Shown here piece after piece: positions 6,024-35,329 of a DNA stretch of 64,000 bases (its first letter is position 1; every line of letters starts with the position of its first letter). This DNA is from an uncultured bacterium (GTDB lineage Bacteria; Patescibacteriota; Minisyncoccia; UBA6257; 2-01-FULL-56-20). A program made the translations under genes and the position numbers. The stretch covers positions 224,001 to 288,000 of the forward strand of contig CAWJQC010000007.1 of NCBI GenBank assembly GCA_963844965.1, read 5' to 3'. Under the pieces are notes generated by a model that saw only the letters and a list, made by a program, of their open reading frames with translations, searched no databases and was not told where the DNA came from.

Positions 6024-6437
6024 ATGTATCCGCCGGACCACACGCCGTATGTTTCGGTGGACACGGCAAACAGCAAACTTGTTCCTGCGACGACTTCAAG
6101 CGAGTCGGTGAGTATCGCCGAAGACGAAACCAATGCGATTGCGGGCGGGGGAGTCGTTCTCAAAATGCAACCTGTTCTGGTTGACGAGCGTATAAGCACC
6201 TGGCTTGACGACAATCTAAAAACTTATGTTACGGACCCGGCGGCGGTTTCACAGAAGAACATGACTGTTGCCGGGAAAACCGCGGTTGAAATTACAGTCC
6301 CCCAATCCACTGCCGGCGCGAAAGTTTACAGGCTCTGCGTGATCCAGCCCGGCAATTATTTCATCGTTATCACAGAAACCGCGCCGAGCGCGCTCTTTGA
6401 TGCTATATTTTCCACCATTTCGTTCAGCCCGTATTGA
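6024..6437 (+). CDS. Hypothetical protein whose conserved domain start (TSTWKIYKNVKYGF) lies upstream of the first ATG; the frame is open from 5877 with no ATG
   Basis: In-frame extension back to 5877 encodes a motif homologous to the preceding ORF; possible non-ATG start or 5'-damaged gene. Confidence 0.4.
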   Translation: MYPPDHTPYVSVDTANSKLVPATTSSESVSIAEDETNAIAGGGVVLKMQPVLVDERISTWLDDNLKTYVTDPAAVSQKNMTVAGKTAVEITVPQSTAGAKVYRLCVIQPGNYFIVITETAPSALFDAIFSTISFSPY

Positions 6438-6480
6438 TTGAGGTGTTGCGCGTTGCCATTATTATTGTTATAGTCATATT

Positions 6481-7389
6481 ATGTTTACCGTTATCTCCCG
6501 CATAATTCATTTCGGCTTAAAGAATTTCTGGCGGAACGGCTGGCTTTCAACGGCCACCGTGGCCATTATGGTACTGGCTTCGCTTATGCTCGTGGGGCTC
6601 GTGCTCTTCGGCGTGATTTCCAGCAGTGCGGCGGCTTCCATCCAGGACAAGATTGACATAAGCGTTTATTTCAAAACCACCACCTCCGAGGACCAGATTT
6701 TAAATATCAAACAATCGCTTGAGCAACTCTCTCAGGTGAAAAACGTTGATTATGTTTCCCAGGACCAAGCCCTCGCGATTTTCAAGGAAGCTCACAAGGA
6801 CGATCCCACCATAAGCCAGGGGATAAACGAGTTGGATACGAATCCGCTTGAAGCGTCGCTCAATATCAAAGCTAACAAGCCGGACCAGTACGGGACCATA
6901 GCCGACTACCTGAACTCGGCGAATCTGAGTTCATATATAGACAAGGTGAGTTATTCGGACACCAAGACCATGATTGACAGGTTGACCGCTATTATTAACA
7001 ACGTCACGCGCGGCGGCTTCATACTGACCGTTGTCCTCGCGCTCGTCGCCGGATTGGTGGTTTTCAACACCATACGGCTTGCCATATATTCCAATCGCGA
7101 AGAGATCGGTATTATGCGCGTCGTCGGCGCCTCCAACAGTTTGGTCCGCGGACCGCTTGTCGTTGAAGGAATAATTTCCGGCGTGCTCGCGGCAATCTTG
7201 AGCGTAGCGATCGCGGCGCCCATCGTCTATTTTCTGTCGCCGTATATCAAGATTTTCATAGCCGGTTTGGATATTTTCCAGTATTTCTACGCGAACATCG
7301 GCCGACTGTTTCTGTACCAGCTTTTGTTCGGAGTGGGTATCGCCAGTTTGTCCAGTTTGGTTGCCGTGAGAAGGTATCTGAAGAACTAG
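6481..7389 (+). CDS. ftsX: Cell division permease-like protein FtsX
   Basis: 302 aa; N-terminal TM, periplasmic domain and C-terminal 3-TM FtsX-like permease domain; downstream of ftsE. Confidence 0.85.
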   Translation: MFTVISRIIHFGLKNFWRNGWLSTATVAIMVLASLMLVGLVLFGVISSSAAASIQDKIDISVYFKTTTSEDQILNIKQSLEQLSQVKNVDYVSQDQALAIFKEAHKDDPTISQGINELDTNPLEASLNIKANKPDQYGTIADYLNSANLSSYIDKVSYSDTKTMIDRLTAIINNVTRGGFILTVVLALVAGLVVFNTIRLAIYSNREEIGIMRVVGASNSLVRGPLVVEGIISGVLAAILSVAIAAPIVYFLSPYIKIFIAGLDIFQYFYANIGRLFLYQLLFGVGIASLSSLVAVRRYLKN

Positions 7390-11161: not shown

Positions 11162-11565
11162 ATGCCTCAGCGTGAAAAACCATTGATACTCGTCACCGAC
11201 GACGATAAGGACTACCGCGAAGCCGTTGTTCTGCAATTGCAGGCGGCCGGCTTTGACACCATCCAGGCAAAAGACAGCAAGGACTCAATTCAAAAAGCCA
11301 AGGAATCCAGCCTGATCTTATTCTTATGGACGTTAACATGCCGCCGGGTCTTAACGGCATTGATACCGCACTGGAGCTCAAAGAAACGCCCGAAACGAAG
11401 GATATTAAGATCGTTTTTCTGAGCGGTTTGGAGAATCCGTGGCCGCTTTTCGGCGGAGAAAGGGGAGACGTGAGCAGGGAAATGGGAATGGAGGATTACT
11501 TCATAAAGACGAAGGATTTCAGCGAACTGGTGGCGAAAATCAAGAAGATTTTGAACGTAACGTAG
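11162..11565 (+). pseudogene. Single-domain CheY-like response regulator receiver, frame broken by a 1-nt indel near 11298
   Basis: Two overlapping ORFs whose translations join into one receiver domain (LILVTDDD...KESS / PDLILMDVNMPP...). Confidence 0.65.
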
Positions 11566-11617: not shown

Positions 11618-11800
11618 GCCGCGCGCACCGGCGTGTGCCCAGTAGTAGACCGAGCACCTCGCTTTCCTCAATGCCTTGAGGTTGGGCTGGGTTTTTGCAT
11701 AAAGCTGTAAATTTGTTGTTGTCAGCGCTGTGATAATGAAAGCGTGCGGGCGTTGCAGTGCTCGGCTCACTACTGGGTGTGTTATAATGTAATCAATGGT

Positions 11801-11919
11801 CCCGTTAGAAGCCGCGATCGCTTTGGCGGGACAGTTGATGTTTTTTTGGACATAAGATAGTCGTTTTCCCAAATTAAATAAATTTAGCAGGTTACTTATC
11901 GCGATCTGCTTCTAACGGG
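11801..11919 (+). promoter_or_regulatory. Structured leader of pilB: 12-bp perfect long-range inverted repeat CCCGTTAGAAGC...GCTTCTAACGGG ending at the start codon
   Basis: Arms at 11801-11812 and 11908-11919; the ATG at 11920 immediately follows the right arm. Confidence 0.5.
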
Positions 11920-13169
11920 ATGGCTGAATTAAAACGCGACGCCTCTTTTCTTAAAATAGAGATAGAAAAAGATCTCGCGCGGCAGGTGGACAAGGTCTCC
12001 GTCGTTTCCTTGGTTGACTTGCTGGTGGAGTACGCTTATATCTTGCGCGCTTCCGACATCCACATTCAACCCGAGGAAAATTCGTTGCGCATCCGTTACC
12101 GCATAGATGGTCTCCTCCAGGATATTTTCCAGAAGATGACCATTCGCAAGGACATCCAGCCCGAAATCATCAGCCGCATAAAAGTTCTCGCCGGCTTGCG
12201 CACTGACGAGCACCTTGCTTCGCAGGACGGGAGGATCAAGGTTAAGGTCAAGGATTTCGGCGAAATCAGCGTCCGTGTTTCCATCGTGCCGACGTACAAC
12301 GGGGAGAACGCCATTTTGAGGGTGCTTGCCGAAACGCAGGGATTTACCGTGAACGATTTGGGATTTTTGCCGAACGACCTGAAGAAAGTTACGCACGCCA
12401 TGACGAAGCCCTACGGTATGATCCTCGCGAACGGTCCGACCGGTTCCGGTAAGACAACGACCCTCTACACGATTTTAAAAACCTTGAACAAGCCGGATAT
12501 TTCCATAGTGACCATAGAAGACCCTATTGAGTACGCATTGCCGGGAACCTCGCAAATTCAGACCAACGCCGACATAGGATTCACGTTCGCGAGCGGTCTC
12601 AGATCAATTCTGCGCCAAGATCCTGAACATCATCATGGTGGGCGATAATCCGCGACGAAGAGACGGCGGGAATAGCGGTGAACGCGGCCCTGACCGGCCA
12701 CCTCGTGCTTTCAACTCTGCACACCAACGATTCAGCAACAACCTTTCCCCGGCTCATAGATATGGGTGTGCCGCCATTCCTCGTAGCTTCAACGGTTAAC
12801 GTGGCGATGGGCCAGCGTCTTGTCCGGATGATATGCCAGAAGTGTAAGCAGCCGCGTAATTTTAGCGAGATGGAAATAAAAAGTTTGGCGGAAATCATTC
12901 CGGAGTCGGCAAAATATCACGGCAAGTTTTTCATAGGGAAAGGATGCCCCGCCTGCAATGGAACCGGCTATATCAGCCGCACTGGCATACGCGAAGTGTT
13001 GGAAGTGAACGAGACAATCAGCCAGCTTATCATGAACCGCGCGAACGCCAAGCAGATAAAGGATGCTGCTGTCAAAGCCGGAATGACCACGATGACAGAA
13101 GATGCCTTGGAGCGCGCTTCCAAGGGAGTCACCTCCATTGAGGAAATTTTGCGCATTATACACGAGTAG
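11920..13169 (+). pseudogene. pilB: Type IV pilus assembly / type II secretion ATPase PilB/GspE, interrupted by two indels about 19 bp apart (near 12626 and 12645)
   Basis: N-terminal GspE N-domain, Walker A GPTGSGKTT; Asp box and the [13 protein letters not shown] His box lie in different frames; three frames must be spliced to recover DPDIIMVGEIRDEET. Confidence 0.8.
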
Positions 13170-13179
13170 CGCGATGAAT

Positions 13180-13308
13180 CCCGTTAGAAATCCTGCCGGC
13201 AGGCAGGCGCGGACGCTTTTCCAATGACACACCTATTGAACGGTCGAAGTATGTTAAGCAACAACGGTAGGCGCGGAGTTTTTCCGTCCGCGTCCTATTT
13301 CTAACGGG
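13180..13308 (+). promoter_or_regulatory. Structured leader of pilC: inverted repeat CCCGTTAGAAAT...ATTTCTAACGGG ending at the start codon, plus nested GCGCGGACG/CGTCCGCG stem
   Basis: Arms at 13180-13191 and 13297-13308; the ATG at 13309 immediately follows. Confidence 0.5.
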
Positions 13309-14388
13309 ATGAACAAATTTCAGAGAATTCTTTCCCGATTATTTGACAGCGTCCCGCTTCAGGACAAAATTAATTTCGCGCGGCATATGGCGCTTATCAT
13401 AAAAGCCGGATTGCCGATATACCAGGGACTGGGGATTATCCGCGCCCAAACGACTTCCAAGGTGCTCCTTAAGGTGATAGACAGCGTTATGGAAGACGTG
13501 AACAACGGGAAGTTTCTTGCCGACGGGTTGGAAAAATTTGAATATCTTTTCGGGACTTTTTTTGTGAACATCATCCGCGTGGGGGAATCGAGCGGGACCC
13601 TCGCCAAGAATTTCTTGTATCTTGCCGAAGAACTCAAAAAATCCAAAGCGCTCAAAAGCAAGGTCACTTCGGCAATGATATATCCGCTTGTGATTTTTGC
13701 TATGACTTTGGGAGTGACGGGTTTTCTGGCGTTTTTCGTTTTCCCGAAACTTCTGCCGGTATTCGCGAGCTTGAACGTCAAGCTGCCCATAACCACCGTC
13801 ATAATGATGGGCGTCCTCCAGTTTTTGCGCGAGTATTTCATAGAGCTCATAATCGGGGTCGTCATTCTTGTTGTCGCAGTTAGGATGATTATTAAGTACG
13901 TAACGCCGATAAAGTTCCTTCTGGATAAGTTGATTCTTGTAACGCCGGTAATCGGGCCGCTTTCCGTTGATGTTAATATGGTCAATTTTACGCGCGTCTT
14001 TGGATTGCTTTTGAAGAGCGGCGTAAAAATCTTGGAGGCGGCCATGATAACATCAAATACTTTTGAGAATATCGTCTACAGACGGGCGCTCGTAGCCGCG
14101 AAAGATGAAGTTCAGAAAGGCGGCCAGCTCGCGACCTATATGGGCGAAAAAAAGAGATATTTTCCTCCGCTAGTGACCGGCATGATACGCATCGGTGAGG
14201 ATACCGGCAATCTGGAAGAAAACCTGGACTACCTTTCGGAATATTACGAGGACGAAGTTGATACCAAGCTGCACGTTTTGACGAGCGTTCTTGAACCCTT
14301 GATGCTGCTTTTCATGGGGCTTCTCGTCGGATTCGTTGCTTTGTCCATTATCACGCCAATTTACTCCATTTCGCAGGGCATCCAGTAG
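13309..14388 (+). CDS. pilC: Type IV pilus assembly / type II secretion platform protein PilC/GspF
   Basis: 359 aa; duplicated GspF domains, three TM segments, conserved GESSG motif. Confidence 0.85.
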   Translation: MNKFQRILSRLFDSVPLQDKINFARHMALIIKAGLPIYQGLGIIRAQTTSKVLLKVIDSVMEDVNNGKFLADGLEKFEYLFGTFFVNIIRVGESSGTLAKNFLYLAEELKKSKALKSKVTSAMIYPLVIFAMTLGVTGFLAFFVFPKLLPVFASLNVKLPITTVIMMGVLQFLREYFIELIIGVVILVVAVRMIIKYVTPIKFLLDKLILVTPVIGPLSVDVNMVNFTRVFGLLLKSGVKILEAAMITSNTFENIVYRRALVAAKDEVQKGGQLATYMGEKKRYFPPLVTGMIRIGEDTGNLEENLDYLSEYYEDEVDTKLHVLTSVLEPLMLLFMGLLVGFVALSIITPIYSISQGIQ

Positions 14389-14393
14389 CTCCA

Positions 14394-14528
14394 ACTTTCT
14401 ATTTTTGAGAACCGGCGTCACGAATGCTCCAGCGGCATTCGTGCGCCTGCATCTCGCTCCGACGGCGTCCGATTAAAATCGGACGACCAAGCCCGTCGGA
14501 GCTCCGATAGCTTCTCAAAAATAGAAAG
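14394..14528. repeat. About 135-bp palindromic element: 19-bp perfect terminal inverted repeats (AACTTTCTATTTTTGAGAA / TTCTCAAAAATAGAAAGTT) enclosing three internal hairpins
   Basis: Seen directly in sequence; MITE-like or complex terminator/structured RNA. Confidence 0.6.
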
Positions 14529-14639
14529 TTTCCGCGATGGGATTAAGGTGTTTTGCTGACGCAAAACAGCCTTTGTGAAGCAACACCCGGCGCTTTTGGA
14601 AATAAAAATCGCCCCGATCTGTCTGATCGGGGCGCGCTG

Positions 14640-15173
14640 TCAGGGTTTCCACTCTGGCGGAAATTTGTAAATGTCGTATGTCTCAAGGAGTACGCCGAAA
14701 GTCTCACTTTCTATACGGCGTTTTTCAAGTACGGCTTCAAAGACCAGTTCCAGCCCGGCTTTTTTATAGTAGGGCTGGTGACCGCGAGCGAGAACCCGGG
14801 CCACATCCAGGACTGTTTCCGGCGCAGATTGTCCCGCTAATTGTACGATGTCCGAAAATTGGTATGTTCGCCGACCGCCTACATCGCAGTGATTCACAAT
14901 AACGTACTCAATGCTGTAACTTATGCCGTCTCCATCCTGTCCCCATATGGGGTTGATCTTGAATTCTCGGAAAACAGGTCTGAGTGAAAGATTAAGATTG
15001 TCAAATGGCCGGACTGCTATGTATTTTACTTTGTCGGTAATCCAGCGGCGCAGAAGTTCGCTTTCGCTTACATTTCTTCGCGACGCTTCCGCGATTCTCT
15101 CCGAAGGATTGCCGATTTTCCTTGAGAGCCATGGTATCTCGGATAAGTATTCTCGTGCCTTTGACCACTTCAT
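14640..15173 (-). CDS. Hypothetical protein (177 aa) on the opposite strand inside the pilus locus
   Basis: Long ORF with no recognisable family. Confidence 0.4.
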   Translation of the reverse strand: MKWSKAREYLSEIPWLSRKIGNPSERIAEASRRNVSESELLRRWITDKVKYIAVRPFDNLNLSLRPVFREFKINPIWGQDGDGISYSIEYVIVNHCDVGGRRTYQFSDIVQLAGQSAPETVLDVARVLARGHQPYYKKAGLELVFEAVLEKRRIESETFGVLLETYDIYKFPPEWKP

Positions 15174-15346
15174 ATTGCCTCCTCACCCTGTAGGATATTG
15201 GTTTGTGTGCAACTCCCCGTCAATCGCTCTATAAGGTCATGTCGGAGAGCTGGATAAAGTTTAGCGTCGGTATTCACTATGTGTCAAGCGAAAAATTATT
15301 GTTATGAGTCGCGCGGCAGGTACGGCATGCAAAATCAATATTGAAA

Positions 15347-33275: not shown

Positions 33276-33307
33276 AACAAAAAATTTCGGTGATAAGCTA
33301 AGGAGTG

Positions 33308-33418
33308 GTCGCGAATAACGCGAATGGCGGCAAATAATGCGAATAAATCTTACTTTTGTTTTTCGCGGGTATCTTTCATAATTCGCGTTATTAAATAAAA
33401 ATTCGCATTATTCGCGAT
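33308..33418. promoter_or_regulatory. Four copies (two per orientation) of a 12-bp motif AATAACGCGAAT / ATTCGCGTTATT upstream of mrdA; operator-like
   Basis: Copies at about 33311, 33334, 33380 and 33401, arranged as a large imperfect palindrome ending 7 nt before the ATG. Confidence 0.45.
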
Positions 33419-33424
33419 TACTCC

Positions 33425-35329
33425 ATGTTCTCAAAAAAGGAACAAAAAGACCTCGCTCTTGAAGAAGCGCTCCGCGACAGCGTGTCTTCGGATTTTGACG
33501 TCGTGGAGGTGCCCATCGGTGCGAAGCCGTTCCTTTATCTTGGCGGCGTGCTTGTTCTGGTCGGCCTTGTCCTTGCCGGGCGTATCCTGTATCTCAACAT
33601 TTTCGGCGCGCAGTTATACGTTTCGCAGGCGCAGGCGAATTTGAGCAGTTTGCAAAAGCTTACGGCGCCGCGCGGTTTGATCTACGACAGGCAGGGCGAT
33701 GTTCTTGCCGAAAATGTCGCCACATTCGCGGCCGTGCTTAACGCGAAAGAGTTCGCGAACCATCCGGAACTGCAGGAAAACACGTTGAGGACGATTACCG
33801 ACGTTCTCGGAATTTCCGCCGATGATGTGCGCGGTTTGATGAACAGCGGCTCGTCTTCTCCCGCGTCCGTTGTCCTAGCCGACAATCTTATGCAGGGTGA
33901 GATAGTTGGAATTGACGGCGCGAACCTTCCGACACTTTCGGTTGAGCGCGAATTCGGAAGAAAATACAACGAGGGTCCGGTTTTTGCGTCCGTCGTGGGT
34001 TATGTAGGGAGGCCGAGCGCCAATGACCTCAAAACCAACCCCGACCTTGCGGGCGATGACTTTGTCGGCAAGGCGGGAGTCGAGGCGTTTCACGACAAAT
34101 CTTTAAGGGGCAGTGACGGAACGGTGGAGACCATCAGGGATTCCAAGGGGCAGGTTTTGAGCGAGAAAAAGAAAAGTGATCCAGCGCCAGGCGAGCCGCT
34201 TCGTCTCACCATTGACGGAGATTTTCAGAGATACTTTTATTACCGTCTGGAGGAGGGACTTCAGTCGTTGGGGAAGCGGATAGGCGCGGGAATTGCCATT
34301 GATCCGCGGAACGGTGAGGTGCTCGCGCTCGTGAACTTGCCGTCGTTTGACCCAAATGTTCTCTCGGGTCCTGGCAATAATGACATAAAGACCGAGATCT
34401 TTAATTCCGCGGACAAACCGCTTTTCAATCGCGCAGTTAGCGGCTACTACAGTCCCGGTTCAACCATCAAGCCCTTGGTCGGCGTCGCGGCATTGGCGGA
34501 AGGCGTGATTGACCCGCAACGGGAAATTTTTTCGCCGGGCTACATGGATTTTCCGAATCCTTACAACGCCAGCGAGACAACCCGTTATTTGGACTGGCGC
34601 TATCAGGGAAACGTGAATTTGGCTTCGGCGATTGCCCAGTCGTCGGACGTTTACTTTTATCTTGTCGGCGGCGGTTCGCCTCCCGAAATTTCGCCGCCGG
34701 AAATTCTGAACGGTGGCGGCACCGTAAAGGGACTGGGCATCAGCCGGCTAATTGACTGGTGGGAAAAATTCAATTTGGGCAAACCGACCGGCGTTGATCT
34801 GCCCGGAGAAGGCGACGGTTTCCTGCCGTCACCGGATTGGAAAGAAGCGAAAACGAAGAAACCGTGGCTTTTGGGCGATACATATAATGTTTCCATCGGC
34901 CAGGGCGATTTGCTTCTGACGCCGATTCAGCTTCTTTCCTACACGGACGCGATAGCGAACGGCGGAAAAATTTACGAGCCGGTTTTGAATTTGGACTCGC
35001 GCCATCCGAGTACGACCGCTGACCTTTCCGCGTTCCAGCCGGAAATAAAAGAAGTGCAGAAGGGGATGGTGGAGGGCGTTACGTCGCCTCTCGGCACGGC
35101 GCACTCCTTGGCGGACCTTGGTTTCTCTGTCGGCGCGAAGACTGGCAGCGCGCAGGTGATGAACAACGCCCAGGAGAACGCGTGGTTTGTTGGCTACACG
35201 CCTACCGATAATCCGCAGATTGCCATTTTGGTTCTTGTGGAAAATTCCAAAGAAGGAAGTTTGAACGCCGTGCCGATAGCGAAAGATATCTTAAATTGGT
35301 ATTATTGGAATAGGATTTATAAACCATGA
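33425..35329 (+). CDS. mrdA: Penicillin-binding protein 2 (elongasome transpeptidase)
   Basis: N-terminal TM; transpeptidase motifs STIKP (SxxK), SSD (SxN) and KTGS; position after mreBCD. Confidence 0.9.
   Translation: MFSKKEQKDLALEEALRDSVSSDFDVVEVPIGAKPFLYLGGVLVLVGLVLAGRILYLNIFGAQLYVSQAQANLSSLQKLTAPRGLIYDRQGDVLAENVATFAAVLNAKEFANHPELQENTLRTITDVLGISADDVRGLMNSGSSSPASVVLADNLMQGEIVGIDGANLPTLSVEREFGRKYNEGPVFASVVGYVGRPSANDLKTNPDLAGDDFVGKAGVEAFHDKSLRGSDGTVETIRDSKGQVLSEKKKSDPAPGEPLRLTIDGDFQRYFYYRLEEGLQSLGKRIGAGIAIDPRNGEVLALVNLPSFDPNVLSGPGNNDIKTEIFNSADKPLFNRAVSGYYSPGSTIKPLVGVAALAEGVIDPQREIFSPGYMDFPNPYNASETTRYLDWRYQGNVNLASAIAQSSDVYFYLVGGGSPPEISPPEILNGGGTVKGLGISRLIDWWEKFNLGKPTGVDLPGEGDGFLPSPDWKEAKTKKPWLLGDTYNVSIGQGDLLLTPIQLLSYTDAIANGGKIYEPVLNLDSRHPSTTADLSAFQPEIKEVQKGMVEGVTSPLGTAHSLADLGFSVGAKTGSAQVMNNAQENAWFVGYTPTDNPQIAILVLVENSKEGSLNAVPIAKDILNWYYWNRIYKP

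Follow-up and report, generated by a model that had tools for sequence, protein, structure and literature searches.

Short inverted-repeat elements on the start codons of pilB and pilC in a Patescibacteriota genome share their ends with GIY-YIG nuclease cassettes

The DNA analysed here, referred to as the window, is a stretch of 64,000 nt (positions 224,001 to 288,000, forward strand) of contig CAWJQC010000007.1 from an uncultured bacterium of the Patescibacteriota (assembly GCA_963844965.1), in which a long inverted repeat ends on the start codon of each of two adjacent type IV pilus genes, pilB and pilC. We consider it likely that both features are independent, recent insertions of a MITE-like element (MITE, for miniature inverted-repeat transposable element), with relatives in the form of ~280-bp cassettes encoding a GIY-YIG nuclease, and that they are selfish DNA with no pilus-specific regulatory role. 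Comparison with related sequences shows that the two features are separate insertions, from different subfamilies, of a non-coding element, and that the ends and junction architecture of this element are those of the GIY-YIG mini-cassette. An initial annotation of the window had proposed, among other explanations, MITE-like terminal inverted repeats targeted to start codons. This was essentially right, given the flanking direct repeats, the filled and empty sites, the many copies in many genomes and the near-identical copies within single genomes that are described below.

Two elements at the pilB and pilC start codons

Pfam assigns the open reading frame (ORF) at 11920-12648 to T2SSE (PilB-like; pilB is split into two ORFs) and that at 13309-14388 to T2SSF (PilC), in agreement with the gene identities proposed initially. 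The 10-mer CCCGTTAGAA is found at 11801-11810 and 13180-13189, and its reverse complement TTCTAACGGG at 11910-11919 and 13299-13308, with the ATGs at 11920 and 13309 coming next; the window letters confirmed the reported positions of all motifs. Four occurrences of the exact 10-mer on the two strands of the window compare with 0.18 expected, and four or more were obtained in 0 of 100 dinucleotide shuffles. Neither additional copies with one mismatch nor, in a fuzzy paired search, diverged arm pairs were detected in the window. The perfect stems had been put at 12 bp and are in fact slightly longer, 13 bp for the pilB copy (11800-11812 with 11908-11920), which takes in the A of the start codon, and 14 bp for the pilC copy (13178-13191 with 13297-13310), which takes in its AT. 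The nested stem noted in the pilC leader is also real, with GCGCGGACG (13207-13215) pairing with CGTCCGCG (13285-13292). Folding of both leaders yielded favoured structures of -42.9 (pilB copy) and -53.3 kcal/mol (pilC copy) for the sense strand, with z-scores of -3.3 and -3.9, and the antisense strands folded roughly as well (-39.0 and -55.5 kcal/mol).

Both inverted repeats are enclosed by direct repeats that the annotation had missed, ATGG at 11796-11799 and 11920-11923 around the pilB copy, and (A)TGAA at 13174-13178 and 13309-13313 around the pilC copy (all features of the two elements are on the plus strand). Element 1 (11800..11920, delimited by folding and subfamily alignment) belongs to subfamily A and is a non-autonomous copy 121 nt long. 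It consists of the closing pair T11800·A11920, the 5' arm CCCGTTAGAAGC (11801-11812), an inner helix of CGCGAT (11813-11818) with ATCGCG (11898-11903), a 4-nt bulge, ATCT (11904-11907), and the 3' arm GCTTCTAACGGG (11908-11919). The left ATGG corresponds to the ancestral pilB start codon plus G, the empty sites of two relatives (L120 and L121, see below) having one ATGGC, and the right ATGG is the rebuilt, functional start codon of the T2SSE ORF. An extended -10 promoter, TGTTATAAT, lies at 11780..11788, and because it is only 7 nt upstream of the left ATG (11796), pilB was leaderless before the insertion. Element 2 (13179..13309), which is likewise non-autonomous, is 131 nt long and belongs to subfamily B. 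It has the closing pair T13179·A13309, the 5' arm CCCGTTAGAAAT (13180-13191), an extra palindrome, CCTGCCGGCAGG (13192-13203), the nested stem given above as its inner helix, a TCCT bulge (13293-13296) and the 3' arm ATTTCTAACGGG (13297-13308). Its left (A)TGAA marks the ancestral pilC start, 4 nt past the pilB stop codon TAG (13167-13169), and its right (A)TGAA is the rebuilt start codon of the T2SSF ORF.

The interiors of the two elements are only 55% identical, which is background level; we conclude from this that the elements did not arise from each other by local duplication, as the annotation had already surmised from their differing loops. ORFs beginning at the left ATGs run for 19 and 17 codons in elements 1 and 2, in different frames. 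No Shine-Dalgarno sequence was seen in or near the 3' arm of either element, a consensus scan found no outward promoter inside them, and Rfam returned no match, even at E < 1, for the window region or for elements in 8 other loci.

Judged by its PilC homologues, the window falls within the Patescibacteria. An exact database look-up of the window's own PilC returned no record, and the nearest relatives with DNA are L120 (83% PilC identity) and L121 and L122 (76%). In all three the pilB-pilC junction lacks the element, and there is no space for one before pilC because the end of pilB overlaps the pilC ATG (...CATGAATAA...); their PilB is intact, at 415-416 aa. The pilB site is empty as well in L120 and in L121, where the upstream sequence reads TGCTATAAT-GTAAATC-ATGGCTGAA, a leaderless arrangement (TATAAT-N7-ATG) with a single ATGG and no element. 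The junctions expected of empty sites would be GTTATAATGTAATCAATGGCTGAATTAAAACG for pilB and CACGAGTAGCGCGATGAACAAATTTCAG for pilC. A conspecific contig, L123 (100% identical), holds element 2 unchanged, and in L124, a 78% relative, the 3' arm precedes the pilC ATG. With sites empty in L120-L122 and filled in L123, presence among close relatives is patchy, as expected of a mobile element. Other orthologous pairs of filled and empty sites were found (for example L029 versus L064, and L047 versus L052), and the element-free orthologues hold a single-copy site, typically TGnTAnnAT-N6-7-ATG.

Two observations concern the pilus genes themselves. The ORFs into which pilB is split, 11920-12648 and 12678-13169, reflect two single-base insertions relative to L120 and L121, one near 12624 (CCTGAAC versus CCG-AAC) and one at 12646 (GATAATC versus GA-AATC). 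The second insertion is absent from the conspecific short-read contig L123, in which several nearby bases differ, and the split may represent either a pseudogene or a local assembly error. Seven PilC homologues (P0015, P0021, P0034, P0035, P0067, P0068 and P0081) are annotated at 380-439 aa, 20-80 aa beyond the 359-aa norm, possibly because a gene caller has started at the upstream duplicate ATG and run on through an element that is in frame.

A dispersed family with a common junction

We then scanned other genomes, one per species, for the arm pair at the spacing seen in the window. The scan found at least 119 genome stretches with such pairs and gave 139 copies for analysis, at least 137 elsewhere plus the two in the window, with a 10-bp core that is common to all by design of the search. 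Among the matches listed, the carriers are mostly Patescibacteria (Saccharibacteria, Kaiserbacteria, Nomurabacteria, Nealsonbacteria and others), and the same ends also occur in Omnitrophota, Planctomycetota, Deltaproteobacteria and other metagenome-assembled genomes, which points to a spread across phyla. The ATG or GTG of a long ORF abuts one end in 86 of the 139 copies including the window's two (84 of 137 without them), at the right end in 49 cases and at the left end, on the other strand, in 37. The motif pair is thus strongly enriched at start codons in other genomes; with the folds favoured as well, the outcome that the annotation had named as refuting its observation did not occur. The genes concerned are varied housekeeping genes (topA, pheT, lysS, atpD, secG, ribosomal protein genes and others), with pilC accounting for 4 and pilB for 2 of the 86 gene-adjacent cases, and this wide range of unrelated hosts rules out specificity for pilus genes. 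In some genomes (L091, L050), copies at unrelated genes are 96-100% identical, as compared with a 95th percentile of 66% between genomes.

The family ends read YCCCGTTAGAA...TTCTAACGGGR, and an arm variant in ...AGAG is invariably accompanied by CTCT.... The window subfamily has the consensus 5' CGCGRWC ... GWYCGCG-AYCT 3'. Relative to the host gene, interiors matched on the same strand in 62 cases and on the opposite strand in 5, and no reversed member of the window subfamily was present among 33 gene-oriented copies compared.

A single rule describes the junctions: a left side ...N-(4 nt)-Y/CCCG... and a right side ...CGGG/R-(same 4 nt)..., in which Y pairs with R. In the 86 gene-adjacent copies the closing pair is T·A (64) or C·G (22), and the 4-nt repeat is perfect in 58, TGAA being by far the commonest. 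The start codon of the host gene is consequently a hybrid, made of the last purine of the element and the duplicated TG, which gives ATG or GTG; behind C·G-closed copies the host gene begins with GTG, and the upstream duplicate is usually still ATG. Hexamers resembling a -10 box are most frequent, in filled sites, at a distance of 6-7 nt upstream of the left ATG (17 of 35). Read as target duplications, these junctions show that the element inserts in a T-N-N-A/G tetranucleotide and duplicates it, and that surviving copies favour three kinds of site, namely A/TGAA-type start codons, start codons within TATG, and -35-like hexamers (TTGAC). They likewise show that the purine last base and the duplicated TG rebuild an ATG or GTG straight after the 3' arm, with the host frame unbroken.

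Several variants of the elements deserve description. Very short versions, near-bare hairpins with the same arms, measure 65-77 nt between their outer ends (L012:7174-7238, L059:2236-2304, L036:4316-4391 and L069:434-510). Tandem and nested copies occur in L014:7674-7895, L139:~1480-1790, L067, L115, L031 and L057; in these, the second element sits in the start-codon repeat regenerated by the first, or within the other copy, an arrangement that argues for recognition of the target sequence and not merely for survival of harmless insertions. A C·G-closed short subfamily (L041, L053, L083, L092, L007 and others) has a conserved promoter-like stretch, TTGAAATTAGCTA...CTATATAAAGACAGAC, just inside its gene-proximal end, and this stretch may drive the host gene itself; a promoter-like TTGAAA...TATAAA was seen near the 3' end of one subfamily outside the window. 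At its gene-distal end the C·G-closed subfamily repeats, in inverted orientation, the 3' end of the nuclease gene introduced below, as a fold-back of one end.

Three further explanations for the short elements were examined. Carriage by phages does not account for them, as 2.9 million viral contigs contained 2 short and 0 full-length copies. A conserved leader peptide starting at the left ATG is not supported either: of 70 upstream ORFs, 13 end at the TAA of the arm, 3 end at +1 and the others stop in the loop, and the recurrent MNPVR... beginnings and ...F-stop endings turned out to be relics of, or parallels to, the nuclease ORF. Lastly, an upstream Shine-Dalgarno sequence bridged to the start codon by the hairpin was considered; a weak motif of this kind precedes only 12 of 86 copies, a small sample and too few to conclude from.

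Nuclease cassettes with the same ends and paired arms

A longer element with the same arms is found at L085:6222-6501 (6216-6501 including the flank), behind TGTTATAAT-N7 and with an ATGAAC...GTGAAC junction. It is a single ORF, which runs from the ATG of the flank through the 5' arm (ATG AAC CCC GTT AGA AGT, MNPVRS) and stops at a TAA within the 3' arm (GAC TTC TAA CGGG GTG). It encodes a catalytic domain of the GIY-YIG type (PF01541, E 2e-17, above cut-off), the nearest solved structure being the UPF0213 protein BH0048 (PDB 1zg2); similarity to group I intron endonucleases is weak and falls under the family cut-off. We found 956 homologues of 86-93 aa. Among the best 120 of these 956, 75 have the arm-encoded start PVR[SN] or, in the other frame, VPLE, and 91 have a C-terminal F (TTC before TAA); VPLE is the frame of element 1 in the window, whose left-ATG ORF begins MVPLEA. 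In 27 sequences, Y12, Y23, G25, H37, N38, E57, R68, E69 and N83 are invariant and R33 nearly so, and the full-length relatives retain the conserved Tyr, Tyr-x-Gly, Arg, Glu and Asn of the GIY-YIG superfamily. One such cassette, in L125, is wedged between hisF and hisH with an exact MITE junction.

As these elements had been found through their arms, we also assembled a set of 80 metagenomic loci picked by protein similarity alone, which removes the ascertainment. The arm pair surrounds the nuclease ORF in 78 of the 80, with an overall length of 278-284 bp and the stop codon inside the 3' arm; the closing pair is complementary in 78 of 78 and the 4-nt repeat perfect in 52 of 78. The full-length copies fall into a start-codon class (ATGAAC...GTGAA), a second start-codon class in shifted register (ATATGC...GTATG), a class in which a -35-like hexamer is regenerated beside its -10 (CTTGAC...GTTGACA), and a few others. 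In ORF orientation the first base of the repeat is T in 47 of 47 full-length copies, and the repeats are strongly directional (TGAA 20 versus TTCA 0, TTGA 10 versus TCAA 2, TATG 9 versus CATA 0). The frame from arm to stop is open in 13 of 23 start-codon copies as against 14 of 48 others. Because the arm frame is often closed and almost all full-length copies contain an internal ATG, borrowing of the host ATG is optional. No longer element with the same ends and duplication was found in ~1.2 Mb of fetched loci; neighbouring short copies that enclose a host gene, such as pyruvate kinase in L067, were tried as candidate long autonomous elements and discarded.

The arms also pair outside their conserved core. 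Of the 139 copies, 133 have a complementary closing pair, 127 are complementary at position 11 and 117 at position 12, although these positions vary; independent variation of the two sides would give ~68, 68 and 61. In full-length copies, where the ORF sets the sense strand, positions 11-14 are also complementary well over expectation, and the pairs that are not Watson-Crick comprise 17 G·U versus 1 A·C. The 3' partners of these positions are the last codons of the nuclease gene (GGT, GAC or AAT, then TTC-TAA), and therefore changes in its amino acids track the 5' arm. In the inner helix of the window subfamily, read on the strand of the host gene, we counted 207 Watson-Crick, 14 G·U and 2 A·C pairs; an alternative register gave 3 G·U and 12 A·C. 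This covariation shows sense-strand pairing of the arms together with 3-4 covarying positions beside them, and it is on that strand, as mRNA or as top-strand single-stranded DNA (ssDNA), that the pairing matters. Since pairing is maintained specifically there, the hairpin probably forms in one of these two molecules. The shared translational control suggested in the initial annotation is borne out to this extent, that RNA pairing is kept on the sense strand; as a leader belonging to the pilus genes it is contradicted by the empty sites in relatives, the unrelated host genes and the missing Shine-Dalgarno sequence.

Proposed mechanism, alternatives and relation to known systems

We propose that the full-length and the short copies are both moved by the GIY-YIG nuclease, which the short ones would receive in trans and which would probably recognise the folded ends, given that gene and ends evolve as a unit and that the search of the fetched loci turned up no other mobility gene. 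In transcripts of pilB and pilC, looping out of the insert by the perfect stem would bring the original initiation context next to the rebuilt AUG, such that the insertion would be tolerated. For pilB this context would be the 5' end of a leaderless mRNA, and for pilC, where the left ATG follows the stop codon of pilB after 4 nt, it would be that stop codon. We infer such looping from the fact that essential genes carry these inserts. Alternatively or additionally, the pairing may limit translation of the nuclease or constitute the substrate of transposition.

A bolder version, to which we give somewhat less than an even chance, is that the ~280-bp cassette is an autonomous transposon with the 86-93 aa GIY-YIG nuclease as its sole transposase, acting on folded ssDNA ends, and that the window copies are its hitch-hikers. 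The element would then be designed to be harmless: insertion would be directed to start codons and -35 hexamers, which the terminal base of the element rebuilds, the host ATG could be borrowed for the nuclease, the TAA-CGGG-RTG end would permit a coupled restart, and the paired ends would loop out the insert. GIY-YIG proteins are not, to our knowledge, among the known classes of prokaryotic transposase, and we know of no insertion sequence as small as an autonomous element of ~280 bp.

A number of points weigh against this picture. The interior of the window subfamily has no detectable similarity to that of the full-length copies beyond the arms, so that the link between the window elements and the cassettes rests on the shared ends and junction architecture. 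Searching the window by tblastn with the nuclease consensus revealed no nuclease gene of this family, the window covering only 64 kb of the genome. We are aware of no biochemical precedent for nuclease-driven transposition, and a conventional transposase could be acting on the same ends. As for looping out, the asymmetry between G·U and A·C is absent from the stem extension when all short copies are taken together (7:6), and the folds of the sense strand exceed those of the antisense strand in stability by only 1.2 kcal/mol (p = 0.03). Copies that lie upstream of -35 hexamers, where translation of the host is not at stake, have kept the hairpin just as well, which suggests that it serves the element itself. 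Finally, pilB is frameshifted in the window, and its expression there may not be preserved.

Among other explanations, the two hairpins could have been domesticated as regulators of pilB and pilC, whether by offering a processing site to RNase III, by stabilising the 5' end or by occluding the start region and so repressing translation. RNase III is known to cleave the hairpins of Correia elements. Both window copies lie in the transcript, right on the start codons, their stems are very stable and pairing is kept on the mRNA strand in the window subfamily; moreover, other bacterial MITEs are co-transcribed and alter expression (Delihas review, PMC3184786). The insertions are nevertheless lineage-specific and absent from close relatives with the same operon, the same element is found in front of unrelated genes, the window copies are from two subfamilies, and pilB is frameshifted, with no link to pilus biology. 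We regard domestication as rather unlikely.

It is also quite unlikely, in our estimate, that the elements are ordinary MITEs of a conventional insertion sequence family, for instance one with a DDE transposase, with the GIY-YIG ORF as a passenger or separate tenant and the hairpin as incidental. The full classical signature is present (inverted repeats, a 4-nt duplication, no ORF, many copies, filled and empty sites), the window subfamily has only its ends in common with the nuclease cassettes, and all established prokaryotic transposases that we know of belong to enzyme classes other than GIY-YIG. Yet the ~1.2 Mb of fetched loci yielded no longer element with these ends and duplication, 78 of the 80 protein-chosen nuclease genes have the ends at fixed spacing with the stop codon within the 3' arm, and the last codons covary with the 5' arm, which means that ORF and ends evolve as one unit. 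The excess of G·U on the sense strand, too, would be unexpected for a site that is read as duplex DNA.

Conserved translational control of the pilus genes by the host, through a thermometer, a riboswitch or a protein-binding leader, was suggested by the same 12-nt stems in front of two adjacent pilus genes, and elements do recur at pilC (4 of 86 gene-adjacent cases) and pilB (2 of 86). The empty sites in the nearest relatives and the unrelated host genes already refute it, the elements before pilC in other genomes are of different subfamilies, the loops are unrelated, and there is neither an Rfam match at E < 1 nor a Shine-Dalgarno sequence. The RNA thermometer named in the initial annotation fails in particular, as perfect stems of 13-14 bp in folds of -43 and -53 kcal/mol have far too much stability for physiological melting and no Shine-Dalgarno sequence to sequester. 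Such control is therefore very improbable. An identity as integron attC sites is scarcely credible: GTTAGAA and TTCTAAC resemble the GTTRRRY and RYYYAAC cores, and a variable, imperfect palindrome of 100-130 nt with single-strand-specific pairing would suit, but the order GTTAGAA...TTCTAAC on both strands is the reverse of RYYYAAC...GTTRRRY, and the elements stand singly and not in arrays, 5' of genes rather than 3' of cassettes, with 4-nt duplications.

Other features of the window were noted in passing. Upstream of the split pilB, a response-regulator gene that is a single gene of 134-144 aa in relatives is likewise divided, into overlapping ORFs at 11162-11422 and 11326-11565, possibly by a second frameshift in the same neighbourhood. 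In the region 14380-15300, the spacer from pilC to the next gene measures 975 nt, versus 182-319 nt in relatives, and holds another inverted-repeat element of 164 nt, starting from the pilC stop codon and with perfect 19-bp arms, AACTTTCTATTTTTGAGAA (14393-14411 and 14512-14530), as well as a minus-strand ORF of 177 aa (14640-15173) without a Pfam match; this content looks like a further insertion. An unrelated inverted repeat of 123 nt, GGAGTGGTCGCGAATAACGCGAAT ... ATTCGCATTATTCGCGATTACTCC (33302-33427), ends exactly on the ATG at 33425. Its left arm overlaps a Shine-Dalgarno-like AAGGAG, its stem would pair GGAGT with ACTCC before the start codon, and no direct repeat was seen around it.

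The elements bear on several questions. A rough density of ~20 exact-armed copies per megabase (139 elements in 119 stretches of 8 kb plus the 64 kb) is reached in the ultra-small genomes of Patescibacteria. The copies lie exactly on start codons of essential genes, and gene-calling programs either carry the host gene on through them or overlook its true start. The hosts seem able to initiate at an AUG or GUG lying straight behind a very stable hairpin, with no Shine-Dalgarno sequence and often in a gene that was once leaderless; the start-codon insertions amount to dozens of replicates of one natural experiment on how translation initiates. Mobilisation by the nuclease, if true, would add a new enzyme class to prokaryotic transposition and set a new lower size limit for an autonomous element, and the short defined ends and 4-nt target would then be attractive as a tool. 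A full-text library, largely without subscription journals, yielded no published description of the element, of start-codon MITEs in these bacteria or of GIY-YIG cassettes bounded by inverted repeats; an earlier description of the family may exist. Should it prove to be a nuclease-driven transposon, the family would be categorically new.

Bacterial MITEs have been defined, with examples that include Correia/NEMIS, ERIC, RUP and Nezha (PMC3184786). The window copies resemble Correia/NEMIS of Neisseria, ERIC, RUP and Nezha in their size (~100-160 bp), inverted repeats, target duplications, stable stem-loops and want of a transposase ORF, and also in lying beside genes, being co-transcribed and distinguishing related genomes by filled and empty sites. 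At 121 and 131 nt they contain no mobility gene, have inverted ends of 13 and 14 bp, a target duplication, filled and empty sites and dispersed copies, and the place of the cognate autonomous element would be taken by the ~280-bp cassettes with the same ends and junctions, if the encoded nuclease does mobilise them. They differ from these MITEs in having unrelated ends (the window copies are not Correia elements), a duplication of 4 nt (T-N-N-A/G) and not, for example, TA, an exact register at start codons or -35-like hexamers with the motif regenerated by the terminal base of the element, a strong orientation bias relative to the host gene, and longer same-end elements that, in all cases found, encode a GIY-YIG protein and not a DDE transposase. 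As to regulatory RNAs, the stems are perfect and lack a Shine-Dalgarno sequence, at variance with RNA thermometers, and with no model match and no retention at orthologous sites they do not behave like an Rfam cis-regulatory family.

The nearest system in architecture is that of REPINs and RAYTs, in which a dispersed hairpin repeat accompanies a small nuclease gene that is flanked by inverted copies of that repeat and is believed to spread it, and ssDNA hairpins are thought to be the substrate. RAYTs are HUH/Y1 proteins related to IS200/IS605 that make no target duplication, and REPINs are extragenic. The cassette similarly has a nuclease gene flanked by a hairpin repeat that the nuclease would spread, but the flanked gene encodes a GIY-YIG protein, a 4-nt duplication is present, the sites are start codons and the nuclease copies are themselves dispersed. 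With GIY-YIG homing endonucleases (I-TevI, T4 Seg) and the small UPF0213/YhbQ proteins it shares the PF01541 domain, and like homing endonuclease genes it is a selfish nuclease gene wedged between host genes. Homing endonucleases, however, have an extra DNA-binding domain, spread by double-strand-break repair among homologous alleles, and have neither inverted ends nor duplications, whereas the cassette encodes nothing but a catalytic domain, 86-93 aa long, is bounded by inverted ends of 13-16 bp, duplicates 4 nt of its target and occupies many non-homologous sites.

With respect to the proposed looping out, RNA hairpins in T4 genes 38 and 25 shorten the distance between initiation signal and AUG, from 22 to 5 nt and from 27 to 11 (PMC3014915), and the coding gap of T4 gene 60 is part of a mobile element equipped to maintain expression of its host gene (bioRxiv 10.1101/2022.08.31.505936). 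Genes 38 and 25, with their split ribosome-binding sites, provide a precedent, and the gene 60 bypass cassette comes nearest in logic. The T4 inserts are of 22-50 nt and their mechanism has been shown experimentally; here the inserts are of 120-280 nt, most hosts have no upstream Shine-Dalgarno sequence, and looping out is what the arrangement leads us to infer. In the fold-back inhibition of IS10 and IS50, an element end in a read-through transcript from outside pairs, hides the start of the transposase and so limits expression. That pairing is local to one end, whereas in the elements described here the two ends of the whole element pair together.

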